Below, one piece after another: positions 3,510 to 60,713 of a stretch of DNA of 64,000 nucleotides. The DNA is from a phage. The notes below the pieces were generated by a model. The model saw only the letters and a list, made by a program, of their open reading frames with translations, was not told the DNA's origin and did no database searches. The stretch is from assembly GCA_016658885.1 (NCBI GenBank), contig GCA_016658885.1_4807.1; one strand, written 5' to 3'. Position 1 is the first letter of the stretch, and each line of letters opens with the position of its first letter. Position numbers and translations under genes: made by a program.

Positions 3510-3775
3510 AGTGTACTGCAAATTTCCTGTGGGTACAAAATAGTACGGTACTGTCTAGGACTTTTTCTTTGAAAAGTTAGTGGGCAAATGTGTCGTATTT
3601 TGATTAGTGTACTGCAAATTTCATCAAGTACCAAAACGCACCAAAAGACCCATGCCATAAAAACCACACGAACGCAATAATCAATCGCCGTTACAGTTTC
3701 CAGCGTTACAATTCGAAAGCGAATGATTCGAAGCATAATAATATGAAGCATAATGATTCGAAAGCGAATGATTGC
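3510..3775. repeat. cluster of short direct repeats in a non-coding stretch
   Basis: AGTGTACTGCAAATTTC at 3510 and 3606; ATTCGAAAGCGAATGATT twice near 3711 and 3754; GAAGCATAAT twice near 3730 and 3746. Confidence 0.55.
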
Positions 3776-4090
3776 GTGTAGGATAATATCGGTGGGGATT
3801 ATTCTAGATGCGTGTAATTTCGCATGCGTACTATTTTCGGGCGAAGGGTCGGCATATTTATCGTTTTAGTTCGGAACGAAGGGAAAGTTTTGCGCCTTTA
3901 TAAAACAACGACTTACGCGACCCTCCCTAACGGTCCGATATAGGTGTCTATATAAAACAAGGACTTACGCGATGTTTTCCATTTAACGTAATACCCGTTA
4001 TGCGAACTAAGGCGCATCTCGACGAAGATTATGCGACGACGAAGGGAAGGATAAAGGAGTTTTCGCGGAGAAGCGCATCGAGATAGGGAC

Positions 4091-4116
4091 GAAGAAAAGC
4101 CGCGACTAAGCGCGGC
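4091..4116 (-). terminator. rho-independent terminator downstream of 4137..4427
   Basis: On minus strand GCCGCGCTTAGTCGCGGC hairpin followed by TTTTCTTC. Confidence 0.55.
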
Positions 4117-4136
4117 CTATTAGTAACGGAAGGGTA

Positions 4137-4427
4137 TTATAAGGAGACGATTTTAAAGAAAGAGTAACGGCCTTCGCCTTCGGATAGCGCGAGATATTCG
4201 CCGCCGAACTCCGTAGCAAAATAAACCTTACCTTCGATAGTAACGCGGAAGGTAGTAATATCTTCCTCTTCGAGTTCCGTAAATTCGCTAAAATCGATAG
4301 GACTATGAAGCTCTTCGATAGTTGCATCTACGTTAAAGAGATAAACGTTTTTAAGTTTTTCGCCAAATACGTTAGAGTTTTCGGAAGTTTCGACGCGAGC
4401 GGAACGGATAGCGGCTAAAGTAATCAT
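4137..4427 (-). CDS. small acidic protein (96 aa), island paralogue candidate
   Basis: ORF track; start context CTAGGAGAATATTATG shared with three neighbouring island genes; Asp/Glu-rich. Confidence 0.5.
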   Translation of the reverse strand: MITLAAIRSARVETSENSNVFGEKLKNVYLFNVDATIEELHSPIDFSEFTELEEEDITTFRVTIEGKVYFATEFGGEYLALSEGEGRYSFFKIVSL

Positions 4428-4451
4428 AATATTCTCCTAGTTAGTCGGGAG

Positions 4452-4472
4452 GGTAGCGACCTATTCGCTACC
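4452..4472 (-). promoter_or_regulatory. 5' leader RNA hairpin GGUAGCGA-AUAGG-UCGCUACC
   Basis: Perfect 8-bp stem and 5-nt loop, 24 nt upstream of the ATG at 4427; covarying copy at 5017..5037. Confidence 0.5.
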
Positions 4473-4494
4473 TCATCCCCTCTCGATATAAAAC

Positions 4495-4525
4495 ATTATA
4501 GTCTTAGTGTACGAAGAAGTAAAGC
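4495..4525 (-). promoter_or_regulatory. sigma70-like promoter for 4137..4427
   Basis: Minus-strand CTTTACTTCTTCGTACAC...TATAAT; same element repeated at 4894..4923 and 4965..4993. Confidence 0.45.
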
Positions 4526-4534
4526 ACTTTTTCG

Positions 4535-4837
4535 TTATTCTGCGATAAAATATTTATAAGCTTTATCGCCTTCTACGTCGATATACTCGACGATAATTAA
4601 CGCTTCGCCGCGAGGCGTAACCGTCTCGATAAGGGTAACGGCTTCGTCGTCGGTCTTCGCGAAGCGGATGGCGCTACATTCGGCGTACTTCATATCATCG
4701 AAGGAAAGGCCGATGAAGGCGACCGCGCGGACCTTAATGGCGCTAGATTCTAGTTCCGCGTTAACGGCGGCGATAAGAGAGCGAACGGTTAAGCGGTCTT
4801 CGTCGTAAGTAAGGATGGAAGAGATTAAAGTAGTCAT
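4535..4837 (-). CDS. small acidic protein (100 aa), island paralogue candidate
   Basis: ORF track trimmed to ATG at 4837 preceded by GGGAGCTTTATTATG; acidic composition. Confidence 0.5.
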   Translation of the reverse strand: MTTLISSILTYDEDRLTVRSLIAAVNAELESSAIKVRAVAFIGLSFDDMKYAECSAIRFAKTDDEAVTLIETVTPRGEALIIVEYIDVEGDKAYKYFIAE

Positions 4838-4893
4838 AATAAAGCTCCCGATGCTAGTAGAAGAAAGGGCCATCGCCCGTCTCGATATAAACA

Positions 4894-4923
4894 AGTATAC
4901 GCGAGTGTACGAAGAAGTAAAGA
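4894..4923 (-). promoter_or_regulatory. sigma70-like promoter for 4535..4837
   Basis: Minus-strand CTTTACTTCTTCGTACACTCGCGTATACT, followed by TGTTTATATCGAGACGGG as in the 4495 copy. Confidence 0.4.
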
Positions 4924-4964
4924 AAAAAGATAAAATAATTTATCGCATTTTTATCGAAAAAGTG

Positions 4965-4993
4965 CTTTACTTTTTTCTACACTATATTATAAT
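4965..4993 (+). promoter_or_regulatory. sigma70-like promoter for 5062..5376
   Basis: CTTTAC, 17-bp spacer, TATAAT; near-identical inverted copy of the 4504-4531 element. Confidence 0.45.
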
Positions 4994-5016
4994 GTACTCA
5001 TATCGGGACGGGATGA

Positions 5017-5037
5017 GTTAACGAATAGGTCGTTAAC
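5017..5037 (+). promoter_or_regulatory. 5' leader RNA hairpin GUUAACGA-AUAGG-UCGUUAAC
   Basis: Same loop and inner stem as the 4452..4472 hairpin with compensatory outer-stem changes; 24 nt upstream of the ATG at 5062. Confidence 0.5.
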
Positions 5038-5061
5038 GCCTCTCCCAACTAGGAGTTTATT

Positions 5062-5376
5062 ATGGCTATCGTTACCCGCTTTACCCTCGAAAACGCAACC
5101 GCCGAAGTCCAGGGCGTTACGCTTACTTACGGCGAAATTCTCGCGAAATTCTCCGGCGTTCGCTTAGGCGAAGAAATTAACGACGCGACGGTAATCGAGC
5201 AACTCGCTGCTTCTCGCTTAGAGCGCGACGAAAACGGATTCTTCGAAGTCGATGCGGAATTAAATTTATGCGGTAAAACGGCGTTTATTAACGAGTTCGA
5301 ACTCGCCGTTTTAGTTAATTACGATAGCAAAGCTTACGCCTTCGCCCTCGAATTAATCGAAGACGACGAAGAGTAA
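5062..5376 (+). CDS. small acidic protein (104 aa), island paralogue candidate
   Basis: ORF track; AGGAGTTTATTATG start context; ends IEDDEE. Confidence 0.55.
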   Translation: MAIVTRFTLENATAEVQGVTLTYGEILAKFSGVRLGEEINDATVIEQLAASRLERDENGFFEVDAELNLCGKTAFINEFELAVLVNYDSKAYAFALELIEDDEE

Positions 5377-5456
5377 GAGAGGATTTTTAGAGCGTCGTGC
5401 GCGGCGCTTTAATAAAATTCTTTCGCGCCTAGCGCCCTAACAAATAGGAGTTTATT

Positions 5457-6083
5457 ATGGTTAGCTTAAATCGCTTTTCTACTAGCGGCGACGTTATCGC
5501 AACTAAGACCGCCGACCTCGTTGCATTCTATAATGCAAATTCCGGCTCAAAACCGATTAAGAAGTTTGCGGACCGCCGGACCGCCGAGACTCGCGTAATC
5601 GCGTTAATCGAGTCCTTAAACGCGCTCGATGCGCCGTCCAACGAATCGCCCATCCCCGACGCTAAGCCGCGCGAGGAAGTGTCCAGCGATGTAAAAACGC
5701 ATAAGGCGCGTGCGGTCGTTAAAAAGGCTGAGCCTACCCAGGAAGAACTCGACGCGATGACCGACGAAGAATATGAAGCCTTCGTTAAGAGCGGTTTAAA
5801 CGATAGTGCAAATTGCGTAGTGCAAAATGGAACTCCTTCCCATCGCCGTTCGAATAGCGAAGGTATTGCAAAAAGCTGGGATAATAAGGAAGTGGCGCAA
5901 AAGCGTCTCACCCGTAACGGCGTTATGGTCGAGGGTGTAGGCGAGTTCAAATCGGTCCGCGTAGCGTTCGGCGCGCTGGGATTACCGGATAGCAAGCACA
6001 TTCGCTTCCGCATGAAGCTTAAGGAAGCTGGGCGCTTGAACTTCGAGTTCGGCAACAAGTCCTACACCTTCCAGATTATCTAA
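5457..6083 (+). CDS. hypothetical protein (208 aa)
   Basis: ORF track; identical AGGAGTTTATTATG context; carries two ATAGTGCAAAT-type motifs internally. Confidence 0.5.
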   Translation: MVSLNRFSTSGDVIATKTADLVAFYNANSGSKPIKKFADRRTAETRVIALIESLNALDAPSNESPIPDAKPREEVSSDVKTHKARAVVKKAEPTQEELDAMTDEEYEAFVKSGLNDSANCVVQNGTPSHRRSNSEGIAKSWDNKEVAQKRLTRNGVMVEGVGEFKSVRVAFGALGLPDSKHIRFRMKLKEAGRLNFEFGNKSYTFQII

Positions 6084-6089
6084 TCGAAT

Positions 6090-6113
6090 GGCGGCCCTTC
6101 GGGGTCGCTTTTC
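6090..6113 (+). terminator. rho-independent terminator
   Basis: GCGGCCC-ttcg-GGGTCGC hairpin followed by TTTTC. Confidence 0.55.
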
Positions 6114-6511
6114 ATAGTGCAAATTGGTGGCTTATGAATACTCTCATTCTCATCGCTACGTTGTCCATCGGAAGTGGTCGCACCTTATCCCTTTATGATC
6201 ATAGTGCAAATTGCGCTTACCCAACGCGCGTTGCGGCAATAGTTAATAGTGCAAATCGAATGCTATTCGAGACTTGTTGGCGGGTCGATAACGAGAAAGG
6301 TCGGGTAGTCTTAGGTTATAGTGCAAATCTGCTGGTGGAGTCGTTCGATTGGACGGTTGAAGGTCGTAAATTGTTACGGAAAGTGACTAAAAGATGACTT
6401 ATAATAATACACTTTCTAACGCGTTTATGGTTGTAACCTTCCCCATCGTATTACCGATGGCCCTAGAAGTGGAGAAAATGTGTTCTAGGGCCGTTTTATA
6501 GTGCAAATTGG

Positions 6512-6985
6512 CTAGTGGCGGGAGAATTGCTCACCTTCTTTGGCCGCCTCTCCAAAATCCTTGTAGAAATCGTCCATAGAACGGCCCATTTTACTATTGC
6601 CGTTTTCATCAATCATCGTGATGCCGTAGATGATATTCAGTTCACGAATAGCATTAAGCTTGGCTGATGCCGCGACTTCTGGATCACGCACAAGCTTGAC
6701 CAAATTGTGAATTGCACCTTTTACGCTCCATAAATCCTTGAGTGGCATTTCTTCCATACGCTTTTTGAAGCGCATTTTGTAGTACGGATTGCGTTGTGCG
6801 CAAAGGATTCGCTGGCCAGTGTAGTTATCCGTTGCAACTTCCATTCCAAATACTAGTGCAAAAGCTGCGCGCATGTCATGGCCCTGAATAACAAGGTCAA
6901 TGAACTCATCGAATAAAGCCTGATTGTGCTCTGCAAATCGCGGGTCTTCAAAGTCTTCAGGCATCGCTACATAATCTTGACTCAT
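6512..6985 (-). CDS. hypothetical protein (about 157 aa)
   Basis: ORF track trimmed to the MSQDY start; no motif recognised. Confidence 0.45.
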   Translation of the reverse strand: MSQDYVAMPEDFEDPRFAEHNQALFDEFIDLVIQGHDMRAAFALVFGMEVATDNYTGQRILCAQRNPYYKMRFKKRMEEMPLKDLWSVKGAIHNLVKLVRDPEVAASAKLNAIRELNIIYGITMIDENGNSKMGRSMDDFYKDFGEAAKEGEQFSRH

Positions 6986-7221
6986 AGTGCAAAATCCCAT
7001 AGTGCAAATTAATAGTGTGAATTATACAATGGATGGACATTATATTCAAGTGCAGATTGATGTTCATTATGGCTATAAACGTACACAAATCATAGTGCTG
7101 AATGGATAACGGACCGTGGTGCGTGGTGTACTGTTTGATACGAATAAAAGAAATCCATCCCTTTCGCCGCTTGCTATGCAAATCAAAGACTTAGCCGCTG
7201 CTGGCTGGTTGAAGCGTATCA

Positions 7222-7590
7222 TGACGTATCATCCGTATTGCCGCAAGTCTTTGTTTTTACTTATATATTACGGATGATACGTTAAATATATAAATTAACA
7301 TAAGTATGAGGATGTAGAAAAAAATTAATTTAAATTAATTCAAAATGGAGTTAATTAATTTTTCAAATTATATATATAACGATGCCCAGTTTTATCCGTA
7401 TCATCCGTAAGATTAATGTACAAGCCAGGCGCGGCAAGGGCTGTACACTGATACGGATAAAAAACCATGACGTATCATGACGTAAGGGTGTACCAATTTG
7501 GAAAGGATGAATCCAGGAACGGCGCGGCCTGTAGCCATGATACGCTTAATTTTTAACCGTATTTTAAGCGTATCAAATGTGTTCAAACAC
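7222..7590. repeat. iteron-like repeat region with AT-rich core (origin-like), copy 1
   Basis: Direct and inverted copies of ACGGATGATACG / CGTATCATCCGTA flanking an AT-rich block at 7310-7380; similar to 60190..60462. Confidence 0.6.
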
Positions 7591-7816
7591 CACGTTTCAC
7601 GACACTAAAATTTCAATCCATAGATATAATCTAACAAACATCACGGACCAATAGACACGACCTATGAAATATATTTCTAAATATTTCCGCACAATCAATA
7701 AATAAAACACAACCTCATAATCATTCCATCGCAAAACACGACCCAAACAACAAAAGGCCGCATAAAGCGACCAATTGCACACATTCCATTCTTCAAAACA
7801 CACAAATCAATGTTCT

Positions 7817-8353
7817 TTATCCGCTGACCTTCCAGTCACCATTCCTTTTATCACGCTTCTTTAACTCCGTTTTAATGACATTATTATCCACAATAACTCC
7901 TAAACGGCGCAATTCACACATGACCTTGTGGCGATATTGTCGAAGCTTTTTGACGTCCATTGTGCTCCTTGAATAAGATAATACCATAAAAATAATATCA
8001 TCATTCATCTTGTAGCGCATACAAGTTTTATAATGCCTTTTGAAAATAGCATTAACGGCATCTGTTTTCAGCAATTCATCCATTAATTCTTGATTCCCTT
8101 CACAGACGTTAATGACCCATTCATCCCTTGATTTTGCCGCTTTCAATCCCCTTAGAGTTAATAACTCATATAATGCCTTTCTGCACTTAGAGCAATCACC
8201 AATTGTCAAACTTGATTCCATTTCTTGAGCATCGGTCAACTCTGTATTGCCTTTGCTGAATTTACCGCACAAGCTGATTTGCTCGCCGTCGTCAAAGTAG
8301 TGGGCAAGTTTTGAGTATCGCGGCTTGCCCCATCCTGCAACGTTACCCATCAC
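7817..8353 (-). CDS. hypothetical early protein (178 aa)
   Basis: ORF track; first gene of packed minus-strand array. Confidence 0.5.
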   Translation of the reverse strand: MMGNVAGWGKPRYSKLAHYFDDGEQISLCGKFSKGNTELTDAQEMESSLTIGDCSKCRKALYELLTLRGLKAAKSRDEWVINVCEGNQELMDELLKTDAVNAIFKRHYKTCMRYKMNDDIIFMVLSYSRSTMDVKKLRQYRHKVMCELRRLGVIVDNNVIKTELKKRDKRNGDWKVSG

Positions 8354-15595: not shown

Positions 15596-16243
15596 TTATC
15601 CTGTGGCCTGCATATTGCGTACATACTTCTGCTCTAATGAATAGATGAAGTCGGCGACCGTAAATCCCTTTGTGTGCCATTCATACATGGTGAAGCCTGT
15701 ATTCAGGAAATAGCCGCGCACCTTGTCCATCGCTTCAGCTTCCTCCATGGAAGCCATCAGCGCGGCGACGTTGTCATAAGAAGGCACAAATCCCTTCTTG
15801 CGTAGCGCATTGCGCAAATCTTTAGTTCTGAATCCAATCTTGCAAGGGTCATCGCGCCCAGTGGATGATGCAACCTTCGGTAGCGCAAGGAACTCTTTAA
15901 GGAACATCGCAATGTTCAAGTCGCCTGCGTCATCAAGCTTCTGGATTCGGTTGCGACCGCGCCCCTTGAATTCACTTGCACGAGGGTGAGCGCCAAAACA
16001 GTGCGCCCCTTCCAGTTTAGGGTCGATGATCATTACATCTTTACCAATGCGCAGCTCTACGTAGTAAAGATAAGACTCATCGACAAGCTTTGTGCGCTTG
16101 CAAGTGATTGAGTCCTTATCATAACCAAAGCCGCGCAACACGGTTGAAATCATCCGGTTCATTTCTTCGCCGTGAACATCACTTTCTTTGTTCAGTTCAC
16201 CAAGATGTTGAAAGAATTTAGCGATGTTGATTGCTTTATTCAT
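15596..16243 (-). CDS. hypothetical protein (215 aa)
   Basis: ORF track; immediately upstream of the primase-helicase gene. Confidence 0.5.
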   Translation of the reverse strand: MNKAINIAKFFQHLGELNKESDVHGEEMNRMISTVLRGFGYDKDSITCKRTKLVDESYLYYVELRIGKDVMIIDPKLEGAHCFGAHPRASEFKGRGRNRIQKLDDAGDLNIAMFLKEFLALPKVASSTGRDDPCKIGFRTKDLRNALRKKGFVPSYDNVAALMASMEEAEAMDKVRGYFLNTGFTMYEWHTKGFTVADFIYSLEQKYVRNMQATG

Positions 16244-17913
16244 CAGAATTCATCCTTATCTCTTCCCAAAGAACGTTTACGCTCAATAACCTTCTTCAAG
16301 AATTCAATATCTTCAGGGTCAGACTCATCGCGGATAAGATACGCTAAGATGGTCATCAAGTCAGAAATGTATTCCCCTGCTTCATTCTTAATCAGCGGCG
16401 TAAAGTAACCGCGCTGGTTGCGATAGGTCGCAGGCTCAAAGCCAAGCTTTGACATGTGCGGCGCAAGGGTACGAGAGAAAGGCGACTTGCCGCACTTCGC
16501 TCTGAATCCCATAGCGATAGCACCACTGGTGATGTGCCAGCGTCCACTGTGATGTCGGTCATAAGGCGCGGTGATGACGACTTCAACAAGGTCGTTGTCA
16601 ACCATCTCATCACGGATAACGCCGCGTGCACGTTCCATTTCGTTCTTGCTGAACTCAGTAAGCATGCGAGATGTTTCACCAACAAAAGCGTTATAGCCTG
16701 CTTCGCCGTGCTTCTCCATCCACGCAGCGCACTCAGCCATAAGCTGCCAAACATCTTCTTTCAAAGTGGAAAGGTCAGCTTGGAAGTCTTTAGACCAGTT
16801 CGGTTGCCCGTCCTTGTCAGCAAGTTGGCCAACAAAGATAGGGTAAACACGACGGTTGCCCGTATCGTCACGCTGCATGCCTGCGTATTCGTTGCCGTCC
16901 ATGATCGCAATCCACTGGCGTGGTTTAACCTGCGTGTCTTCAAATTTGAAGTCCAGGTCATCTTCCGTCTTAGTCAGGAATGCTTTCATGTTTTCGATGT
17001 CGGCCTTTTTAAAGCCTGTCATCTCGCCAACGTTCGCGATAATTGAGCGACCCGTAATAGCTCGCAAGAACGGGTTGAAGTTTTGCGCGGCCAAGTTCAA
17101 CGGAATCGGTGTTGCGTGGCGGTCATTCATAATAGCTTCGCAAAGCAGCTTACTAAAATAACTCTTCCCTGCGTTCTGGCCGCCGATTAGCGCAATGGAG
17201 ATTGGCGCTTGACAGCCAGGGTTGGTCAGGCGGTTATAGAGCGATAGCCAAAAATACACACCGATTTGTCGGTTTAACTCTGTATCGAACGGTCGGAATA
17301 GCTCGATAAGGTATTTCTCAATGCGCGCAGCACCGTCCCATTCAGGCAGCTTCTTGTAGAAGAAGTCCATCAGGTCGTCGCGCTGATAACGCATGGCCCA
17401 TTCCTTATAGGATTGAGCGACCTGCCGTGAGTTTGGGTTGGACAGGCCTGCTGCGTCGACAGCGGCAACTATCTCTGTGACTTCCAACGTCCGGTCGGTG
17501 AATGTTTCGCCGCGATGGTCGACTAAGCGCCCACGAAAAGTATCTTTGTGAGGGAATGGAACAACGCCGCTTCCCTTATCAAACAACGCGTCGAAAACCG
17601 CATAACGGTTCATGTCACTCGTACGGTCCGCCTGAAGAACAAAATCATCTTTCGTCGGTTTATAATGAGGGAACTTGATTACCTGAAGTGAGGCGAGCAA
17701 ACGTGCTCTTTCAACCAAGTCTTCTTCACCGTAGCATTCCATGCGCTCTGAATCTTTTTCAACGGCTTTATGTTGAAGGCTGATTTTAGCTCTGGTGCCT
17801 TGCTGCTCTGCTGCCTGCATTTCTTCCGAAACGCCTGCATCTTGAATTTCGTCAAAGATTGCACCAAATTCATCACCTGTATCCTCTGGAAGATTGTCAT
17901 TATTAATTGACAT
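16243..17913 (-). CDS. DNA primase-helicase type P-loop NTPase (VirE / D5-like)
   Basis: Walker A IALIGGQNAGKSYF, downstream Walker B-like hydrophobic-acidic stretch, 556 aa. Confidence 0.65.
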   Translation of the reverse strand: MSINNDNLPEDTGDEFGAIFDEIQDAGVSEEMQAAEQQGTRAKISLQHKAVEKDSERMECYGEEDLVERARLLASLQVIKFPHYKPTKDDFVLQADRTSDMNRYAVFDALFDKGSGVVPFPHKDTFRGRLVDHRGETFTDRTLEVTEIVAAVDAAGLSNPNSRQVAQSYKEWAMRYQRDDLMDFFYKKLPEWDGAARIEKYLIELFRPFDTELNRQIGVYFWLSLYNRLTNPGCQAPISIALIGGQNAGKSYFSKLLCEAIMNDRHATPIPLNLAAQNFNPFLRAITGRSIIANVGEMTGFKKADIENMKAFLTKTEDDLDFKFEDTQVKPRQWIAIMDGNEYAGMQRDDTGNRRVYPIFVGQLADKDGQPNWSKDFQADLSTLKEDVWQLMAECAAWMEKHGEAGYNAFVGETSRMLTEFSKNEMERARGVIRDEMVDNDLVEVVITAPYDRHHSGRWHITSGAIAMGFRAKCGKSPFSRTLAPHMSKLGFEPATYRNQRGYFTPLIKNEAGEYISDLMTILAYLIRDESDPEDIEFLKKVIERKRSLGRDKDEF

Positions 17914-19222: not shown

Positions 19223-20305
19223 CTATTTTATGCCACCTGCACGACGATTTATCATGTCAAGTTGATTCTCAATATAAGGCATTACGATTGCTTCAACAAA
19301 AGCGGTCCAACCTTTCTTGCCTTCCCCTTTCCGGTGACAGTCGTGGGCGCAACCGAACACAAACTCATGTTCTGCACCAGGAATAGGGCCGCGAAAGTAA
19401 GCGCCATACGGGTCGCCGTTGGTGTGCTCTTCACCCCAAGGACATATTATGCGACACTTGCCTGACATGTTCTCGATGACGTCGCCATCAGACCCTTCAC
19501 CCATCTTGTTGCGCGCAAGAATTTGCTGGGCTATTTTATACCAAACAGCATCATACTTGTATTCATCGACGTCAATTTGAATCTCACGCTTTTGCGGCAT
19601 TACAACGTGAAAGCCAAATGCCTGGCAGATGTCTTCGATGGTGTAGCGCAAGGAGTAGTCTGCATGGACAAGTCGGCAGCGGAACGGGTCGCCGTTCTCA
19701 TCGACATATTTATAGGGGCCGTCGTGAGTCACACGCTTATTGTTGATGCATCCAGGAACACGGCCCACGCGCGTTACGTCTTTAATCGTGTTGTCGCCGC
19801 CCTTCTTGAGTACCATGTTAACGAAAGACCCAAGGAACGCTTTGAACTGAATAAGATGGTCAATCGGTTCTTTAAAGAAGTACCAAAGCTGGTGGTTGTT
19901 CGGTGAAGTCTCGACGATGACAGTCGGCTTCAGTCGCTCAAAAAAGAATTCCAAATCTAAATCGCCTTTGGACCCTTTACCGTGACCGATGTCGTCGACC
20001 ATCATCGCCATGCCGTGACCAAAGGCCGACTCTGTACGCCAGTATCGCATCTCACCCGTCTTTGGGTTGGGAGACTTACGCATTGAACTGATGCAAGCAT
20101 AGCCGTTTTGGTGCTGCATGAGCGGCTTGCCCAACTTCCAAGGCTTAGGCCAGAAGCTGCTGTTAATCTTCTTGCCGCGCTCGTCAGTCTGCACCGTTGC
20201 TTCAGGAGCAAACACCGTCATGACGCGCTCATCTTCTGGGATGCCTCTCTGGAGTTCTGTTAAAAACTCTTCAATTATTTTTGCTTCTTCTCTTAAACTA
20301 GCCAT
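19223..20305 (-). CDS. putative DNA primase (primase-polymerase-like) with C-terminal Cys/His zinc-binding cluster
   Basis: Acidic MVDDIGHGKG...DLDLEFF segment and CRIICPWGEEH...FGCAHDCH cluster; adjacent to the primase-helicase gene; assignment tentative. Confidence 0.4.
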   Translation of the reverse strand: MASLREEAKIIEEFLTELQRGIPEDERVMTVFAPEATVQTDERGKKINSSFWPKPWKLGKPLMQHQNGYACISSMRKSPNPKTGEMRYWRTESAFGHGMAMMVDDIGHGKGSKGDLDLEFFFERLKPTVIVETSPNNHQLWYFFKEPIDHLIQFKAFLGSFVNMVLKKGGDNTIKDVTRVGRVPGCINNKRVTHDGPYKYVDENGDPFRCRLVHADYSLRYTIEDICQAFGFHVVMPQKREIQIDVDEYKYDAVWYKIAQQILARNKMGEGSDGDVIENMSGKCRIICPWGEEHTNGDPYGAYFRGPIPGAEHEFVFGCAHDCHRKGEGKKGWTAFVEAIVMPYIENQLDMINRRAGGIK

Positions 20306-22067: not shown

Positions 22068-22135
22068 TGAAGGCATAATTAAGTTATCCCAAACGGGGAA
22101 TATAAAATAAACTAATTTATTTAAGGACTGTGAAC

Positions 22136-22975
22136 ATGGCCGAAGCAATCAAAGTATTATCTAAAGAAGAAAAACAAGCAGCTGCAGCAGAACGTCGTCG
22201 CGTGGCTGAAGAAAAACGTCTGGCTAAAAAGAAAGAAGCCGAAGAAAAACGCCAGAAGCGTGAGCAGGAAAAACAAGCCAAGCGTGAAGAAGCTGCGCTG
22301 AAACGCAAGCAGGCTGCTGATGAGAAGGCTCAGAAGCGTGCTGAAGAAGCAGCTAAGAAAGCTAAAGAGCGTGCAGAAAAGGCTGCTGCTAAGAAAGCAG
22401 AGCGTGAAGCTGCTAAAGCAGCGAAAGAAATCGAAAAGGCAAAGGCTAAAGAAGAAGCCAAGCGCCTGAAAGCTGAACAAGCTGCTGCTAAGAAAGCAGA
22501 GCGTGATCAAGCACGTGCTGCAGCGAAGGCCGAAAAAGAGAAGGCCAAAGAAGAAGCTAAAGCGAAACGCAAGGCAGAGCGTGAAGCTGCTAAGATTGCG
22601 GCTAAAGAAGCTGCAGAACAGCAGAAAGAACAGCGTAAGAAAGAAGCTGAAGAACGTCGCAAAGCCATCGCAGAACGTAAGGCTGCTAAAAAGGCAAACG
22701 GTCAGCGTCGTGCAAAAGCAACCCACTTCATCTACACTGGCAATGGCCTGAGCCAGCCGCAAGAGCATTCCACCCGTGGACGCGTTCTGGCTGCGATCAA
22801 AGAAGGCGAAGTTGGCGTGGCGCAGTCTATCGATGAGCTGGGCGAAAAAGTTAAAGATCAACTGTTTGGCGCTTCCGTTCGCTCCTACCTGAGCAAGCTG
22901 GAAGAGATGGGCCACATCGAGTTTGTCGATGTTGAATCCAACGAAGATGCCGAAGACAGTGATCAAGCGGAATAA
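22136..22975 (+). CDS. Lys/Glu/Ala-rich low-complexity protein with globular C-terminal domain (possible DNA-binding protein)
   Basis: About 190 residues of AEEKR/KAEREAAK-type repeats, then a non-repetitive C-terminus; ATG at 22136 after AAGGAC. Confidence 0.6.
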   Translation: MAEAIKVLSKEEKQAAAAERRRVAEEKRLAKKKEAEEKRQKREQEKQAKREEAALKRKQAADEKAQKRAEEAAKKAKERAEKAAAKKAEREAAKAAKEIEKAKAKEEAKRLKAEQAAAKKAERDQARAAAKAEKEKAKEEAKAKRKAEREAAKIAAKEAAEQQKEQRKKEAEERRKAIAERKAAKKANGQRRAKATHFIYTGNGLSQPQEHSTRGRVLAAIKEGEVGVAQSIDELGEKVKDQLFGASVRSYLSKLEEMGHIEFVDVESNEDAEDSDQAE

Positions 22976-28296: not shown

Positions 28297-28757
28297 TGCT
28301 TGACATAGACTATTTGCACGAGCATTTCGATTATTTTGATGGCCAGCTTATAGTCAAAAAGAAGCCCTATAAATATAGAACTCAGGTTGGTGAACCAATA
28401 GGCTATCTTCATGGAGATAGATTGAGATGTAATCTTCACGGAAGGAAATGGTTTGTTCACCAGTTGATATTCTTCTATCATCATGGCTATTTGCCAGCTT
28501 ATGGAATCGACCATTGGGATAGGAATCCACTAAATAACAGAATCGAAAACTTAAGACCTTGTGACGCATCATCAAATGCTCAGAATATCGAAAGGTCTGA
28601 TGAAGTAGGAATAATCTTGACAATCAGCGGCACTTGGGAAGCGTCCATATCAATTAAAGGCAAAAAGAAGTACCTTGGAACTTTCAAGGAAAAGCACGAA
28701 GCCATTGAAGCGAGAATACGTGCAGAAAAAGACCACTACACCCACTACTGGAGGTAA
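28296..28757 (+). CDS. HNH homing endonuclease with AP2-type DNA-binding domain
   Basis: H..DRNPLNNRIENLR...NAQN HNH core; C-terminal SISIKGKKKYLGTFKEKHEAIEAR. Confidence 0.7.
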   Translation: MLDIDYLHEHFDYFDGQLIVKKKPYKYRTQVGEPIGYLHGDRLRCNLHGRKWFVHQLIFFYHHGYLPAYGIDHWDRNPLNNRIENLRPCDASSNAQNIERSDEVGIILTISGTWEASISIKGKKKYLGTFKEKHEAIEARIRAEKDHYTHYWR

Positions 28758-28758
28758 C

Positions 28759-31659
28759 ATGTCATTTCCACAACTAAGAGTTAGAAGCGGATATTCATTT
28801 AAAGAAGTTTACGGAAGGATGCCTGAAATTTGCTCGCGTCTAATTCAACTTAATTGTCACGCGGCAGCGATAGTTGATAACAATACTTGGTGTCACGTTC
28901 GCTGGGAAAAGGAATGCCAGAAAAATGATATTAAGCCTATGTTTGGAATGGAGATTCCAATCATCGACCCTGATGCGGACCCGAAAAAGGGATTCAAACC
29001 GAAGGCTTGGATATTGGCCCTTGACCTGAAATCCTTTTACAATGCGACCACGCTTGCAACACAGCGCGGCGGATTGACCCGTGCAGAGTTCGGGGCGCTC
29101 GATGGCGTCGTTAAATTCTGTGGCGGGGCCGTGGAGTTGCTGCGGCCAGAGGACTACGATTATATAGACGTCAACCCATCATCGTTCCTTTTGGCCAAGC
29201 GCCAGGTATTGGCTCACCGCAGCAACGGAAGGCCGCTGGTTTTAACCGGATACAATCACATGCCTTCACCTGAGCACGTTGACTTTGCTTATGCGTGGGA
29301 AGTTCGCGACACGGTTAAGCCGCACTGCATCGTTGACGCGGAAGACTTGCGCAAACAGCTTAAAGGAATCTTAACCGAAGATGAGTTGAATCAAGCAACT
29401 GCCAATGCGGTTGACATTGCAAATGGAATCGTTGGGCTTGACCTGAAGCTGCGCAAGGCGCCGATTATCCACCTTGCTGGTGACATGGTAAAACTTGCTC
29501 GTGAGGGTATGGAGTACCGCCTTAAGGCAGGTCACATCAAAGAATGGACTCAGGAATATGAGGACCGATTCAACGAAGAGATTCATCAGATTCAGCTAAA
29601 AGATTTCGACTCATACTTTCTTGTTGTAGCGGACCTTGTACGATTTGCAAAAACAAAAATGCTCGTCGGACCTGCTCGCGGCTCATCGGCTGGTTCACTG
29701 GTTTGTTATTGCCTCGGCATCACGGAAGTTGACCCAATCCCGTATAAGCTGCTATTTGCCCGATTCATCGACGTAAGCCGCGCCGACCTCCCTGATATTG
29801 ATATTGACTTTGAGGACACCAAACGCTATATGGTGTTTGATTACCTTAAAGAAAAATACGGCGAAATGAACGTTGCAAAGCTTGGCAACATCAACACGCT
29901 TAAGGCCAACTCAGTAATGGCTCAGGTTGGTAAGAAGTTCAACATTGGATATCACGAAACGGCCAACATTAAAAACGCATTGCTTGAATACTCATCTGGT
30001 GACGCCCGTTATGGTCACGGTCTGGAGGATACCTTTGCAACAACGACCACGGGCCAAGAGTTTGTGGCTAAATATCCCGATGCCGCGCGTTGCATGGGTG
30101 ACCTTGAGATTCACCCGTCCCACACAGGTGTTCACGCAGCGGGAATTATTGTGTGTAATGACCCAATCTCTGATTACTGTACGGTAACAGCGGAAGGGAT
30201 TGCACAAATTGATAAGCCTGACAGCGAATACCTTAACCTTTTGAAGCTTGATGCGCTGGGCCTTCGTACCCTCGGCATCATTTCTGATACTGGCGTGATA
30301 GATGCTGAAACGCTGTACGGCATAAAGCTTGATGATCAAAGCGTCCTTGACATCCTTAACGAAAACAAGATGTCAGGCATCTTCCAGTTTGAAGGCGATG
30401 CTGTACGCTCAGTGACCAACTTTGTGCACGTTGATAACTTTAACAAAATCGATAACCTGACAGCACTTGGTCGACCTGGCCCGTTGTCATCCGGTATGGC
30501 CCAGAAATACATTGAACGCGCGGCAGGGCGTGCGCCGATTGAATACGACGTGCCGCAGCTTGAGCCGTACTTAAAAGAGACTTACGGCGTGTTTCTTTAC
30601 CAAGAGCAAATCATGGCCGTGGTTAAAGAGATTGGTTCATTCGACTGGGCGAAAACATCCGCTGTACGCAAAGCGATGTCAGGCCGTAAGGGTGAAGAAT
30701 ACTTTAACAAGCTTGGCGAGGACTTTGTTGCAGGCGCAATCAATAACGGCGTACCGGAAGCGGACGCAAGAAAACTTTGGCAAGCGATGGCAACGTTCGG
30801 GTCATGGGGCTTTAACAAGTCACACTCCGTGTCATACGCGGTCGTGACCTACTGGACCTTGTGGCTTAAGCGACACTACCCGTTGGAATTTGCCGCAGCC
30901 TGCTTACGCGCTGCTAAGGACGAAGACCAGACGATTGCGATACTACGTGAACTTGCGAAGGAAGGCGTGGATTATGTGCCAATCGACCCTGATCACTCTT
31001 CAATGAACTGGACCATCGCGAACGGAAAGCTAATCGGCGGCATCATGAACGCGAAAGGATACGGAATGGTGAAGGCAATGAAGTATATCGAAGCGCGTGA
31101 AGCCGGAACCTTAACGCAAAAGCAAAAGGACGCATTGGCCAATGCTGAAGTCAAATACGGCGACCTTACAGAGATGCACACAAAGTTCGGCTGGGCGTAT
31201 AATGACCCGTATCTGATTGGCGTGACTTCCGGCGCTTCAATACGCCAGATGAAGGAAGTCGGTGATGACGAGCGTGCAATAGTAATCGGCAAGTTGACAA
31301 AGAAAGTGCTTGCAGACGAGAACGAAGCGACACGCATCCGTAAACGACTTGAGCGCGGCATCTATACAAAGCACGGCAAGCTTAAAAAAGGTCTTCAAGC
31401 TGATGGCCGCTACGCCGAGTTTGACCAGTACGGGAACAAGCTTGAGACTCAGTTCATCGACCTTATGTGCAAAGACGACTCGACAGACTCGCCAATGCGC
31501 TTCAGGATTCGTCCAGAAAAGTTCCAGAAGTACGGGAAATACATTGCTGAAAACGTCGGTAACGGCGCATTCTTCCTGATGAAAGGTCGTAAGCTTGAAG
31601 GCATTGACATGTTCATCGTCGACGTTATCAAACAGGTGTATCCAGATGGCAACAAATAA
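28759..31659 (+). CDS. dnaE: DNA polymerase III alpha-subunit-like replicative polymerase (DnaE family, PHP domain)
   Basis: GPARGSSAGSLVCYCLGITEVDP...LPDIDIDFE catalytic block; start set at ATG 28759 after GGAGG. Confidence 0.8.
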   Translation: MSFPQLRVRSGYSFKEVYGRMPEICSRLIQLNCHAAAIVDNNTWCHVRWEKECQKNDIKPMFGMEIPIIDPDADPKKGFKPKAWILALDLKSFYNATTLATQRGGLTRAEFGALDGVVKFCGGAVELLRPEDYDYIDVNPSSFLLAKRQVLAHRSNGRPLVLTGYNHMPSPEHVDFAYAWEVRDTVKPHCIVDAEDLRKQLKGILTEDELNQATANAVDIANGIVGLDLKLRKAPIIHLAGDMVKLAREGMEYRLKAGHIKEWTQEYEDRFNEEIHQIQLKDFDSYFLVVADLVRFAKTKMLVGPARGSSAGSLVCYCLGITEVDPIPYKLLFARFIDVSRADLPDIDIDFEDTKRYMVFDYLKEKYGEMNVAKLGNINTLKANSVMAQVGKKFNIGYHETANIKNALLEYSSGDARYGHGLEDTFATTTTGQEFVAKYPDAARCMGDLEIHPSHTGVHAAGIIVCNDPISDYCTVTAEGIAQIDKPDSEYLNLLKLDALGLRTLGIISDTGVIDAETLYGIKLDDQSVLDILNENKMSGIFQFEGDAVRSVTNFVHVDNFNKIDNLTALGRPGPLSSGMAQKYIERAAGRAPIEYDVPQLEPYLKETYGVFLYQEQIMAVVKEIGSFDWAKTSAVRKAMSGRKGEEYFNKLGEDFVAGAINNGVPEADARKLWQAMATFGSWGFNKSHSVSYAVVTYWTLWLKRHYPLEFAAACLRAAKDEDQTIAILRELAKEGVDYVPIDPDHSSMNWTIANGKLIGGIMNAKGYGMVKAMKYIEAREAGTLTQKQKDALANAEVKYGDLTEMHTKFGWAYNDPYLIGVTSGASIRQMKEVGDDERAIVIGKLTKKVLADENEATRIRKRLERGIYTKHGKLKKGLQADGRYAEFDQYGNKLETQFIDLMCKDDSTDSPMRFRIRPEKFQKYGKYIAENVGNGAFFLMKGRKLEGIDMFIVDVIKQVYPDGNK

Positions 31660-58667: not shown

Positions 58668-60086
58668 TTATTCCCCTTTCAACCAAGCTTCAAATGCTTC
58701 GTCAGTTGCTGCAGAATCCGCAGCGGCCTTTTGTTTTGCGACTACACGCTGTTTTTGACCGTGTTCAACGCCGCGTAGATAATTATCCACCACGTCAAAC
58801 TCAGCACCATCAACGCACTTCAAGCCTAACTTTTTAGCGCCATATTTCGCTACGGACTTGGAGTCCATAGTTGCATGATCAAAGGCACCAACAACTTTAG
58901 ACAGGCGCTGGTAGAGGCTATTCTTACGAGCAGAATCAGCGTAGAAAGCAGCAACTGCTGAATCAGATGCCATTGAGTGTTCCCCTTTTGCTGGACCTGG
59001 CGACGCTTTCGCCGCTTTTGTCGGTTTGTCATCTTTTTCGACCGAAGCCCCCTTTACGTTGCTGTTTTGCAGGCCGCTAACCACATCTTCAGCTTTGTCG
59101 CAAGGTGATACATCTTCAGCCTTGACTTCAACTTCTTCGTCTTTGACTTCGGCTTCAACTTCTTCTTCATCACCTACCGCGCCACCTTTCAGTTTTGCAA
59201 TAAGTGCTTCGATTTGGCTGATCAGTTGCGGAAGCTCGCCGCCAGCGTGAGATTCAGTTTCAACTTCAAACTTCTCTTCACCTTCTGGAGTCTCTTCAGC
59301 TTCTGCTTTGACTTCTGGATCAACCATCACTTCTTCACGTTCTTCGGTTGAATCCTTCTCTTCTGCTTTCACTTCAACTTCGTCCTGATGAGCAGCTTCG
59401 GTGCTCTCTTCATTCAGAAATTGTTCGAGCGCAGGGATCAGTGATTTCAGCTGTTCAACAGCATTATCACGCGCTTTACCTTTTAACGGTTTTGGCATGT
59501 CTAAATCCTCGTTGGATGGTGTTACAGTCGTCAAACAAAGATGGTCAAAGCAACGACCATCCAGCACCCGTGCACCTGGTACTCGACCAACGTCCACGAG
59601 AGCAATGTGGTTGCCGCGAAGAGTTGTTTGTACCACTTCATACGGCTGCCCGTCAAACTCTCCAGACTGTATGATGAATTCACAGTCATAGCCCAAAGAC
59701 AAGTCAACCTTTCCAGAATCGATGGCCTTCTTCAGACGACGGCTAAAAACTTTAAGGTCGCCGCGCATCCATGGCTTGTCATAATAAACATTGCCAGTTA
59801 GAACGCCATCAACGCCATACTCTTCGGGTGCTGTGTTATCCTCATCACCTTCGAATCCAGAAAGCATTTCGTGATTGTCGATGAAAGGGATATTTTTGAA
59901 TGAATCTATCGCTTCGGGGTCTTTCACCGCTGACTCTGGGCGATAAACTTTTACGATGCGATTCGGATCACCATCAAGTCCAACCTGACCTGCAGAATAA
60001 TCAAAAATGCCAAATGACGAAATGGGACAACCCACAATCGTCAAGAATCCATTTTTGTCAATTTCGCGTGCCGTTTGCATTCGCAT
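58668..60086 (-). CDS. prohead protease / scaffold-like protein
   Basis: Globular N-terminal domain followed by highly acidic EEVEAEVKDEEVEVKAED region. Confidence 0.5.
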   Translation of the reverse strand: MRMQTAREIDKNGFLTIVGCPISSFGIFDYSAGQVGLDGDPNRIVKVYRPESAVKDPEAIDSFKNIPFIDNHEMLSGFEGDEDNTAPEEYGVDGVLTGNVYYDKPWMRGDLKVFSRRLKKAIDSGKVDLSLGYDCEFIIQSGEFDGQPYEVVQTTLRGNHIALVDVGRVPGARVLDGRCFDHLCLTTVTPSNEDLDMPKPLKGKARDNAVEQLKSLIPALEQFLNEESTEAAHQDEVEVKAEEKDSTEEREEVMVDPEVKAEAEETPEGEEKFEVETESHAGGELPQLISQIEALIAKLKGGAVGDEEEVEAEVKDEEVEVKAEDVSPCDKAEDVVSGLQNSNVKGASVEKDDKPTKAAKASPGPAKGEHSMASDSAVAAFYADSARKNSLYQRLSKVVGAFDHATMDSKSVAKYGAKKLGLKCVDGAEFDVVDNYLRGVEHGQKQRVVAKQKAAADSAATDEAFEAWLKGE

Positions 60087-60189
60087 CCACCCTCAAATAA
60101 GTATTGTGTATTATATCTAATGAAAAAAACTTAGGCAAACAATAATTATGGTTTGAATATGTATAACAACCGATATAGCCGCGCCTTAA

Positions 60190-60462
60190 TTAGTGTGATA
60201 CGGATGATACGGATAAAATGAGGCGTATTTTTATCCGTATCGGTGTATAAGCCGCGCTATCACTGGTGTGCTACGGATGATACGGATGATACGGATACTT
60301 TTCATATATAAGAGTTTATAAAAAAAATAAAATTAAATTAGATATATAATTTTAAATTAATTTATTTGAATTCCTATAAAGTATCGCGGCAACGCGTATC
60401 ATCCGTATCATCCGTAAGATTCTTTTGAAAACAACTACTTACTTGATACGGATGATACGTCA
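60190..60462. repeat. iteron-like repeat region with AT-rich core (origin-like), copy 2
   Basis: GATACGGATGATACGGATA, CGTATCATCCGTATCATCCGTAAGATT and AT-rich 60300-60370 block; mirrors 7222..7590. Confidence 0.6.
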
Positions 60463-60713
60463 TTATACGCGTGAAATCCTGCGGCAATCCATTGCCAGGC
60501 GATTCAGTGAATATTAAATAGCACTCCTGCAACTAAAACGCCAATCAGCATTGAGTCATAAACAGCCCATTTCCAAGAAAGCAAAGAGTTGCAATTAATA
60601 TTTCGCACTTTAACATAACGTGACTGAATAATCTTTTGCATAACTTCCTCTTTAGTTCATATCAAATTAATAATTGCACAGTTTAAATTGCGCTTATTTA
60701 CAACTATCTTAAT

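Follow-up and report, generated by a model that had tools for sequence, protein, structure and literature searches.

A non-coding repeat module within the head genes

The DNA analyzed here is a 64 000-nt stretch of a phage genome assembly (NCBI GenBank GCA_016658885.1, contig GCA_016658885.1_4807.1), referred to as the window, and the element in question is R2, a non-coding module of short repeats around an AT-rich core that lies among the head genes. The window represents nearly the whole genome of a Wifcevirus, an Escherichia coli myovirus of about 68 kb, and is 94–98% identical to phages TH35, WFH, ECML-117, FEC19 and Mansfield. Wifceviruses are distant relatives of the Pseudomonas phage genus Pbunavirus, and unusually fast replication has been reported for them.

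All genes around R2 are on the minus strand. In the direction of transcription they are the portal gene (to 63975), a gene for a MuF-like protein (Pfam Phage_Mu_F; 60714 to about 61565), a conserved open reading frame (ORF) of 45 amino acids (60504..60641), and the DUF2213 head protease/scaffold gene (58668–60086), which is followed by the genes of the cement protein and then the major capsid protein. R2 fills the entire non-coding gap between the 45-amino-acid ORF and the protease gene (60087..60503), as delimited by the ORF map, the annotation of relatives and the sequence identity across 29 genomes. A preliminary description of this stretch, made from its letters alone, had placed 630 bp of non-coding DNA between the MuF-like and protease genes. 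The interval from the MuF stop (60714) to the protease start (60086) is indeed 627 bp long, but it holds the 45-amino-acid ORF, which is annotated in relatives and predicted there to encode a membrane protein. The truly non-coding DNA therefore amounts to 417 bp (60087–60503) plus 72 bp.

Iterons and AT-rich core of R2

The repeats of R2 are built on the unit GATACGGAT. Allowing up to one mismatch, this unit has 25 matches in the window compared with 11.1 ± 3.2 in shuffled sequences, with none of 100 shuffles reaching 25. The exact 8-mer ATGATACG occurs 12 times in the 64 kb where 1.9 are expected; six of these copies are located in R2 (60204–60459), the other six at 7215–7544 in a second module that we call R1, and none elsewhere. 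We thus confirm that the repeats and the AT-rich core of R2 are real and far beyond chance. The likeness between 60190–60462 and a region at about 7222–7590, pointed out in the preliminary description, also stands. No third locus where dense short repeats accompany a deep AT trough emerged from a scan of the whole window. In Bas99, a relative whose genome is complete, the only iteron clusters are likewise R1 and R2.

Between 60190 and 60462, we found 10 GATACGGAT units at up to two mismatches, seven of them perfect. Six are located to the left of the core (five on the plus strand, one on the minus strand) and four to the right (three minus, one plus). The core itself, a proposed unwinding element, spans 98 bp (60297..60394) with a G+C fraction of 0.173, compared with 0.461 for the window. 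Two opposed inner arms enclose it: on the low-coordinate side, three tandem 9-bp units on the plus strand (GCTACGGAT GATACGGAT GATACGGAT; 60270..60296) face the core, and on the high-coordinate side the minus-strand arm CGTATCATCCGTATCATCCGTA (60395..60416) carries three units at 60392, 60401 and 60410 (60392–60418). A perfect 22-nt inverted repeat (60272–60293 and 60395–60416) flanks the core.

Each arm has an outer group of iterons beyond it. The promoter-proximal group (60197..60241) consists of two tandem plus-strand GATACGGAT units (60197 and 60206) and an inverted one (60233, minus strand), and makes a 13-nt inverted repeat (60206–60218 and 60229–60241). The distal group TGATACGGATGATACGT (60444..60460, plus strand) is inverted relative to 60404–60416. 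Overlying these units is a 38-nt composite repeat on the plus strand (60177..60287), with copies at 60177–60214 and 60250–60287. A GCCGC box opens each copy (60178 and 60251), and opposed GCGGC boxes are found beyond the core at 60386 and 60481. As single-stranded DNA, both modules fold far better than shuffled sequences (z = −8.6 for R2 and −5.2 for R1). An Rfam search of R2 returned nothing at the gathering score, with sub-threshold hairpin-type matches only (20–32 bits against cut-offs of 50–140). We also considered DnaA boxes and integration host factor (IHF) sites, for which we saw partial resemblance by eye only and make no claim.

Conservation of R2 within Wifcevirus

R2 is kept in all 29 Wifcevirus records at 94–99% identity. 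We aligned ten of these genomes, which fall into two clades, for a closer view of the constraint. The segment 60087–60378, comprising the promoter described below, the low-coordinate arm and the core, has two fixed differences between the clades in 292 nt, while the first 100 nt of the protease gene have three. The remainder of the gap (60379–60503) is less constrained, with about 17 differences in 125 nt. Across the ten genomes the core is near-invariant, with one singleton and one change in the length of an A-run, and the low-coordinate inner arm (60270–60296) is invariant except for one singleton. Phage Bas101 is without exactly one 9-bp unit of the high-coordinate inner arm (the equivalent of 60395–60403), which indicates that iteron copy number shifts by whole units.

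Related modules in other genera

A gap is present at the same place in Pbunavirus (515–551 bp), Serratia Myosmarvirus (469 bp), Pantoea Kylevirus (515 bp) and Xanthomonas Carpasinavirus (370 bp), and is thus syntenic across genera whose protease proteins share only 45–60% identity. Remoter phages with the same protease family (Bordetella IFTN1 and Klebsiella JD001) lack the gap, so the module is not general to head operons of this kind.

The repeats found in these gaps are lineage-specific, and include GATACGGAT, GGTAATTT, GGAATAACC, ACTTTTCG, GATAGTTG, TAACTAAG, TATCCGAT and GTTGCGG. R1 and R2 could both be read in three genera, and within each genome they carry one and the same repeat: GATACGGAT in Wifcevirus, GGTTATT/AATAACC in Pantoea phage Kyle, and GGTAATT(T) in Pbunavirus 14-1, where 8 of the 10 genomic copies are inside the two gaps. 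Relatives in IMG/VR have the same layout of opposed arrays with repeats GATAGTTG, TAACTAAG, TATCCGAT, GTTGCGG or AAAAGTA and a period of mostly 8–9 bp. Across lineages, units are 7–9 nt long and the layout is kept while the repeat changes. Because the repeat differs by lineage yet matches between R1 and R2, a phage-encoded reader is implied; judged from these sequence comparisons, the iteron reader must be encoded by the phage and the module must be functional. The preliminary description would have been refuted had the region turned out to be simply a promoter with no repeat-dependent function. The repeats do not fit such a promoter, being exclusive to the two modules within the genome, changing between lineages and near-invariant within the genus.

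Unlike the iterons, the short boxes are common to the genera. Modules from four genera, and most of the IMG/VR relatives, have GCCGC boxes to one side of the core and GCGGC boxes to the opposite side, with the Serratia gap as an exception in having boxes on one side only. In R1 of the window, the boxes are located within 7240–7524. A scan of IMG/VR with the 14-mer TACGGATGATACGG gave nearly all chance single matches and recovered only FEC19 and ECML-117.

The twin module R1 and the packaging start

R1 (7001..7816) has the layout of R2, with iterons at 7212–7240, 7267–7282, 7390–7411, 7450–7486 and 7537–7574 and an AT-rich core at 7283–7389 (G+C 0.178). We attempted to determine the relative orientation of R1 and R2 in Wifcevirus, but local alignments score well both ways (69–102); the module is nearly palindromic, and no orientation can therefore be claimed. 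The half of R1 distal to terS (7413–7900) exists in at least two versions among Wifceviruses, with 13 of the 29 records aligning, while R2 is uniform.

Directly downstream of R1 lies terS (6512..7000, minus strand), the gene of the small terminase subunit, whose product matches the small terminase of phage E217 (PDB 7UXE, E 6e-34) and is 41% identical to gp76 of phage 14-1. The gene is located far from the large terminase gene and is labeled ‘hypothetical protein’ in most records of relatives; WFH annotates an N-terminally extended terS of 633 bp.

A direct terminal repeat of about 3.7 kb is present in Wifcevirus genomes; papers on phage vB_Eco4M-7 give neither termini nor transcription data. 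The base that corresponds to the first base of virion DNA in WFH and Mansfield, the left end of the terminal repeat, is 7346 (minus strand), inside the R1 core and about 49 and 63 nt from the R1 inner arms. The records of these two phages start at this same base, with the ends having been set independently (by coverage and by PhageTerm). By homology, the terminal repeat covers 3644–7346 of the window (minus strand), and its right end falls between 3644 and 3643, where GGGTCTTT meets TGGTGCG, identically in WFH and Mansfield. In Pantoea phage Kyle, the 3603-bp terminal repeat begins in the R1 core of that phage, at −46/+61 from the arms, and in Pbunavirus JG024 the proposed pac site (59,376) falls in its R1 core. 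With virion left ends or a proposed pac site in the R1 core of three genera, we conclude that R1 contains the packaging start.

R2 differs from its twin in this respect. Among the 29 genomes, R2 is never a record end or the boundary of a terminal repeat as judged by published ends, and the PhageTerm and coverage analyses gave the R1 end only. The Wifcevirus R2 core lacks the sequence that is cut between AACTCC and ATTTTG, while the R2 core of Kyle retains sequence of the cut-site neighborhood. A pac site would be expected next to the small terminase gene, where R1 is found; R2 is 53 kb from terS in the window. The earlier suggestion that R2 might be a packaging site is therefore not supported for R2 itself, but applies to its twin.

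Near the other end of the terminal repeat, Wifcevirus and Kyle have a conserved element CAGTACACTAATCA about 30–40 nt outside the right boundary (3601–3614 of the window, minus strand; ∼3735 in L010 and ∼3640 in L014), which may be part of a right-end recognition signal. We looked for a second right-end site near R2 and rejected it, as the right-end sequence is unique in the window (3637–3656) and no copy of CAGTACACTAATCA is found near R2. Several copies of an octamer, TAGTGCAA / ATAGTGCA, are found around terS and further downstream (5751–7150).

A Rep-like helicase as candidate iteron reader

The window encodes a 556-amino-acid superfamily 3 (SF3) helicase with a VapE-like Pfam domain (16243..17913, minus strand) that resembles the Rep proteins of Staphylococcus aureus pathogenicity islands (SaPIs) and is a candidate reader of the iterons. 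Its sequence matches SaPI1 Rep1 (PDB 7PDS) at E 3.9e-11. The AlphaFold (AF2) model built with 48 homologues (predicted local distance difference test score 88) has a C-terminal winged helix at about residues 436–504. The top Foldseek match of this model is again 7PDS (E 1e-16) over about 480 columns with the winged helix included, nine orders of magnitude ahead of the next matches, which are the primase-helicases of NrS-1, African swine fever virus and poxviruses, SaPI5 PriRep5 and papillomavirus E1. A RepB-like primase (19223..20305, minus strand; Pfam PF16793, E 4.5e-36) is its probable partner in the replication module. Together with a DnaE-like (Pol III alpha) polymerase (28675–31659), the RepB-like (IncQ-type) primase and the SaPI-Rep-like helicase make up a replication set that is unusual for a phage. 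Searches with Pfam and PHROGs on the neighboring and replication-region ORFs yielded no other DNA-binding candidates or regulators.

In Pbunavirus 14-1, BcepF1 and three uncultured lineages (L238, L241 and L242), the gene order is rep, R1, terS, with R1 directly downstream of rep. The distance from rep to R1 in the window is 8.4 kb. A dense GAAGAAGC-type repeat at 22251–22650 is located inside an ORF (22130–22975) and is probably a low-complexity acidic or lysine-rich segment of the encoded protein.

Transcription signals and neighboring features

A sigma70-like promoter (TTGCCT-17-TATAAT; 60110..60138, minus strand) is predicted about 25 nt upstream of the protease ATG and is invariant in the ten aligned Wifceviruses. 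An equivalent −10 element (ATATAATACA or TATAAT) with a −35 element about 17 nt upstream is found in Pbunavirus, Serratia and uncultured relatives. At R1, promoter-like sites occur between the module and terS, and a terminator-like hairpin precedes the module. The last iteron and the −35 element are 35–60 bp apart at R2 equivalents and 105–165 bp apart at R1. Given this variable spacing, we take the promoters to be restart points beyond a bound complex, not targets of the repeats. In Pbunavirus 14-1, some promoters are known to require phage factors. The idea of a late promoter hub, raised in the preliminary description, gains slight support from the conserved promoter ahead of the protease gene; this promoter, however, lies outside 60190–60462, downstream of the repeats, and leaves them unexplained.

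On the opposite side of R2, just after the 45-amino-acid ORF, a small hairpin can be read from the sequence (cctggcaatggattgccgcagg; 60476..60498, minus strand). It is possibly a weak terminator of the portal–MuF operon, although a terminator scan did not detect it. Upstream of the same ORF, between it and the MuF-like gene, the window phage is without a 921-bp gene that is present in all 29 sequenced Wifceviruses (WFH gp023, annotated as ‘head fiber protein’ or ‘tail fiber protein’), and the site is occupied by about 58 nt of unrelated sequence (window 60642–60713).

R2 as an origin-type site

We give an about even chance to the reading that R2 is a second origin-type site for the phage's own Rep-like initiator-helicase. 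This reading draws on the SaPI-like anatomy of R2, on the presence of a matching initiator gene in the same genome, and on the lack of a further candidate origin of this type in the window and the Bas99 genome, where R1 and R2 are the sole loci with an AT trough and iterons; the oriR of phage SPP1 provides a precedent. That R2 is not a virion DNA end also counts in its favor, as do the lineage-specific repeat common to both modules and the scarcity of fixed differences in the promoter, low-coordinate arm and core. We infer accordingly from likeness to known systems that the helicase binds the iterons and that replication can start at R2. The preliminary description had seen here a second copy of an origin-like architecture within the head genes. 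Its view of the architecture is borne out by the layout and the encoded helicase, while the role in replication would follow by analogy.

The origins of SaPIs have 6–12 short iterons just downstream of rep, divided about evenly by a central AT-rich region, with a minimum of two on either side in opposed orientation (Qiao et al. 2022, PMC9371898). The Reps that act on them are initiator helicases able to load themselves; their winged helix reads the iterons, and two hexamers load, one per side (PMC9371898). R2, with 10 units, six and four of them around the core, and opposed arms, has all of these features of the origin except the position next to rep. The similarity extends to the phage's own SF3-type Rep with a C-terminal winged helix and to a specificity that differs between lineages, and in several relatives the twin R1 is directly downstream of rep. 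The phage system differs from SaPIs in having two modules per genome and a RepB-like primase, and in belonging to a virulent 68-kb myovirus that infects Gram-negative bacteria.

In SPP1, gp38 binds both oriL and oriR, which have the same repeats and an AT-rich unwinding element (Godinho et al. 2018, PMC6316719). The oriR segment, flanked by transcription signals, interrupts an otherwise conserved order of head-assembly genes, and a proposal exists that gp38 at oriR stalls forks and sets off the change to concatemer synthesis (PMC6316719). The window, like 14-1 and Kyle, carries one kind of repeat at two sites far apart, each with an AT-rich element. R2 resembles oriR further in being non-coding, in following the portal and MuF-like genes and preceding the scaffold and capsid genes, and in having transcription signals around it. 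SPP1, on the other hand, has direct repeats whose reader, gp38, is an unrelated organizer working with a DnaB-type helicase, whereas the candidate reader here belongs to a different protein family. The pac site of SPP1 is also separate from both origins, while R1 holds the packaging start.

A third comparison is offered by the two separate iteron sites and the SF3-type helicase with a C-terminal DNA-binding domain, which recall satellite phage P4. The alpha protein of P4 is an SF3 primase-helicase with a C-terminal DNA-binding domain that recognizes 8-bp iterons in both orientations at two cis sites, ori and crr. The crr site is 4.5 kb from ori and consists of two 120-bp direct repeats, without opposed arms around a core and without a link to packaging.

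If R2 is an origin-type site, the C-terminal winged helix of the Rep-like helicase would bind the 9-bp GATACGGAT units, and the opposed arrays would position a hexamer to either side of the AT-rich core of 98 bp. Melting of the core would follow, and the RepB-like primase and DnaE-like polymerase would begin synthesis. As in SPP1, the late-region copy R2 need not be as efficient an origin as R1; it might also, when tightly bound, be a roadblock or partner site with an influence on the change to concatemer synthesis. A bound complex at R2 would block read-through, so we propose that the protease–scaffold–capsid operon restarts at the promoter 60138..60110. R1 has the same module with the packaging start added.

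Several observations weigh against an origin-type role. In all 11 lineages examined, the module (as R1) is next to terS, but in four of them (Wifcevirus, Kyle and two other lineages) it is 5–8 kb from rep, with small genes inserted between rep and R1 and none between R1 and terS. R2 is about 43 kb from rep and thus lacks the adjacency seen in SaPIs, and the units of 7–9 nt with an 8–9-bp period are longer than the 5–6 nt of SaPI iterons. The putative recognition helix of the Rep winged helix follows phylogeny and not iteron type in the nine lineages compared. In Wifcevirus and Kylevirus the left end, and in JG024 the proposed pac site, lies in the middle of the R1 core, which ties the module geometrically to terminase cutting. 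GC skew is unchanged at R2; as skew tracks gene orientation, this is weak evidence and uninformative there. Published origin guesses from GC skew in Pbunavirus point to the polymerase/helicase region.

Alternative readings of the module

The link to terminase is the basis of the strongest alternative, to which we assign roughly one chance in four. R2 would then be a second dock for the packaging machinery, with the 9-bp units read by TerS, a ring with N-terminal helix-turn-helix motifs, and with R1 cut and R2 left uncut; R2 could be a synapsis partner of R1, a reservoir of TerS, or a brake or activator on the head operon. In its favor, R1 lies directly upstream of terS in all 11 lineages, and insertions part the module from rep and never from terS. 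The virion left ends of WFH, Mansfield and Kyle and the proposed pac site of JG024 in the R1 core agree with it, as does the cut neighborhood kept in the R2 core of Kyle. In phages SPP1 (pacL-pacC-pacR) and P1 (hexamer repeats), the repeats of pac flank the cut region, and R1 is similar in having repeats on either side of a center of about 100 bp that holds the DNA end, beside terS. R2 is unlike these pac sites, being neither a DNA end in any of the 29 genomes nor beside terS, and lacking the cut sequence in Wifcevirus. For the putative recognition helix of TerS, a pattern S-x-H-V-A is common to two lineages with the iteron ATCCGCAAG and unlike that of others, but the pattern fails when more lineages are added, as L239 and L241 do not fit among the nine compared. 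According to a review, E217 TerS showed no appreciable DNA binding in vitro on the substrates used. A dock for TerS would also leave the SaPI-Rep-like helicase without a candidate origin. We know of no pac phage with a conserved second pac module.

The origin-type and TerS-dock readings can also be combined. R1 and R2 might be dual-purpose ori/pac elements, used early by the Rep-like helicase and late by TerS (or by terminase acting on the Rep–DNA complex), with R2 as an uncut synapsis partner. We regard this as improbable, and our estimate for it partly overlaps with those for the origin and the TerS dock because both proteins would read the repeats.

We hold it rather less likely still that R2 is an upstream regulatory region, in which a phage factor on the repeats would switch the sigma70-type promoters that follow both modules and the core would serve as a bend or an UP-like element. 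A sigma70-like promoter is found within about 35–165 bp of each module, ahead of a gene that is required late (terS, or protease–scaffold–capsid); the 14-1 promoters that need phage factors point the same way, and short tandem operators of 7–9 bp are typical of small repressors. Yet the iteron to −35 distance varies, and known operators are far smaller than this module, which spans about 270 bp and has ten sites around its 98-bp core. Regulation accounts for neither the SaPI-type match nor the genome end inside R1's core, and the scanned ORFs supplied no candidate regulator. Finally, a functionless decaying duplicate or small non-autonomous mobile element, as might be suggested by the perfect 22-nt terminal inverted repeats 101 nt apart and the two copies per genome, is very improbable given the synteny across genera, the absence of visible target-site duplications in the sequence, the limit of two copies in each genome, a constraint stronger than that on adjacent coding DNA, and a layout kept while the repeats change by lineage.

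Implications for Wifcevirus and Pbunavirus-type phages

An origin-type site of this kind would belong to a class of element already known from the SaPI ori and SPP1 oriR, but the instance is not described for this lineage in the literature we searched, in which we found neither an origin nor a defined terminase recognition sequence. For Pbunavirus, origins have been guessed from GC skew, and the pac site is a single proposed coordinate, in JG024. Our analysis names a candidate reader and provides two exact and testable cis elements per genome, together with the lineage-specific repeat for about ten lineages. The Pbunavirus type ranks among the most widely used Pseudomonas phages in personalized therapy. 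In genome rebooting, which has been established for vB_Eco4M-7 and JG024, and in engineering, the two gaps should not be disrupted, and they are usable as lineage-specific handles. If R1 and R2 do prove to be dual-purpose, the element would physically link origin firing, concatemer formation and the choice of packaging start, and would give the first defined recognition sequence for the packaging motor of therapeutic Pbunavirus-type phages, together with a new ori/pac hybrid.

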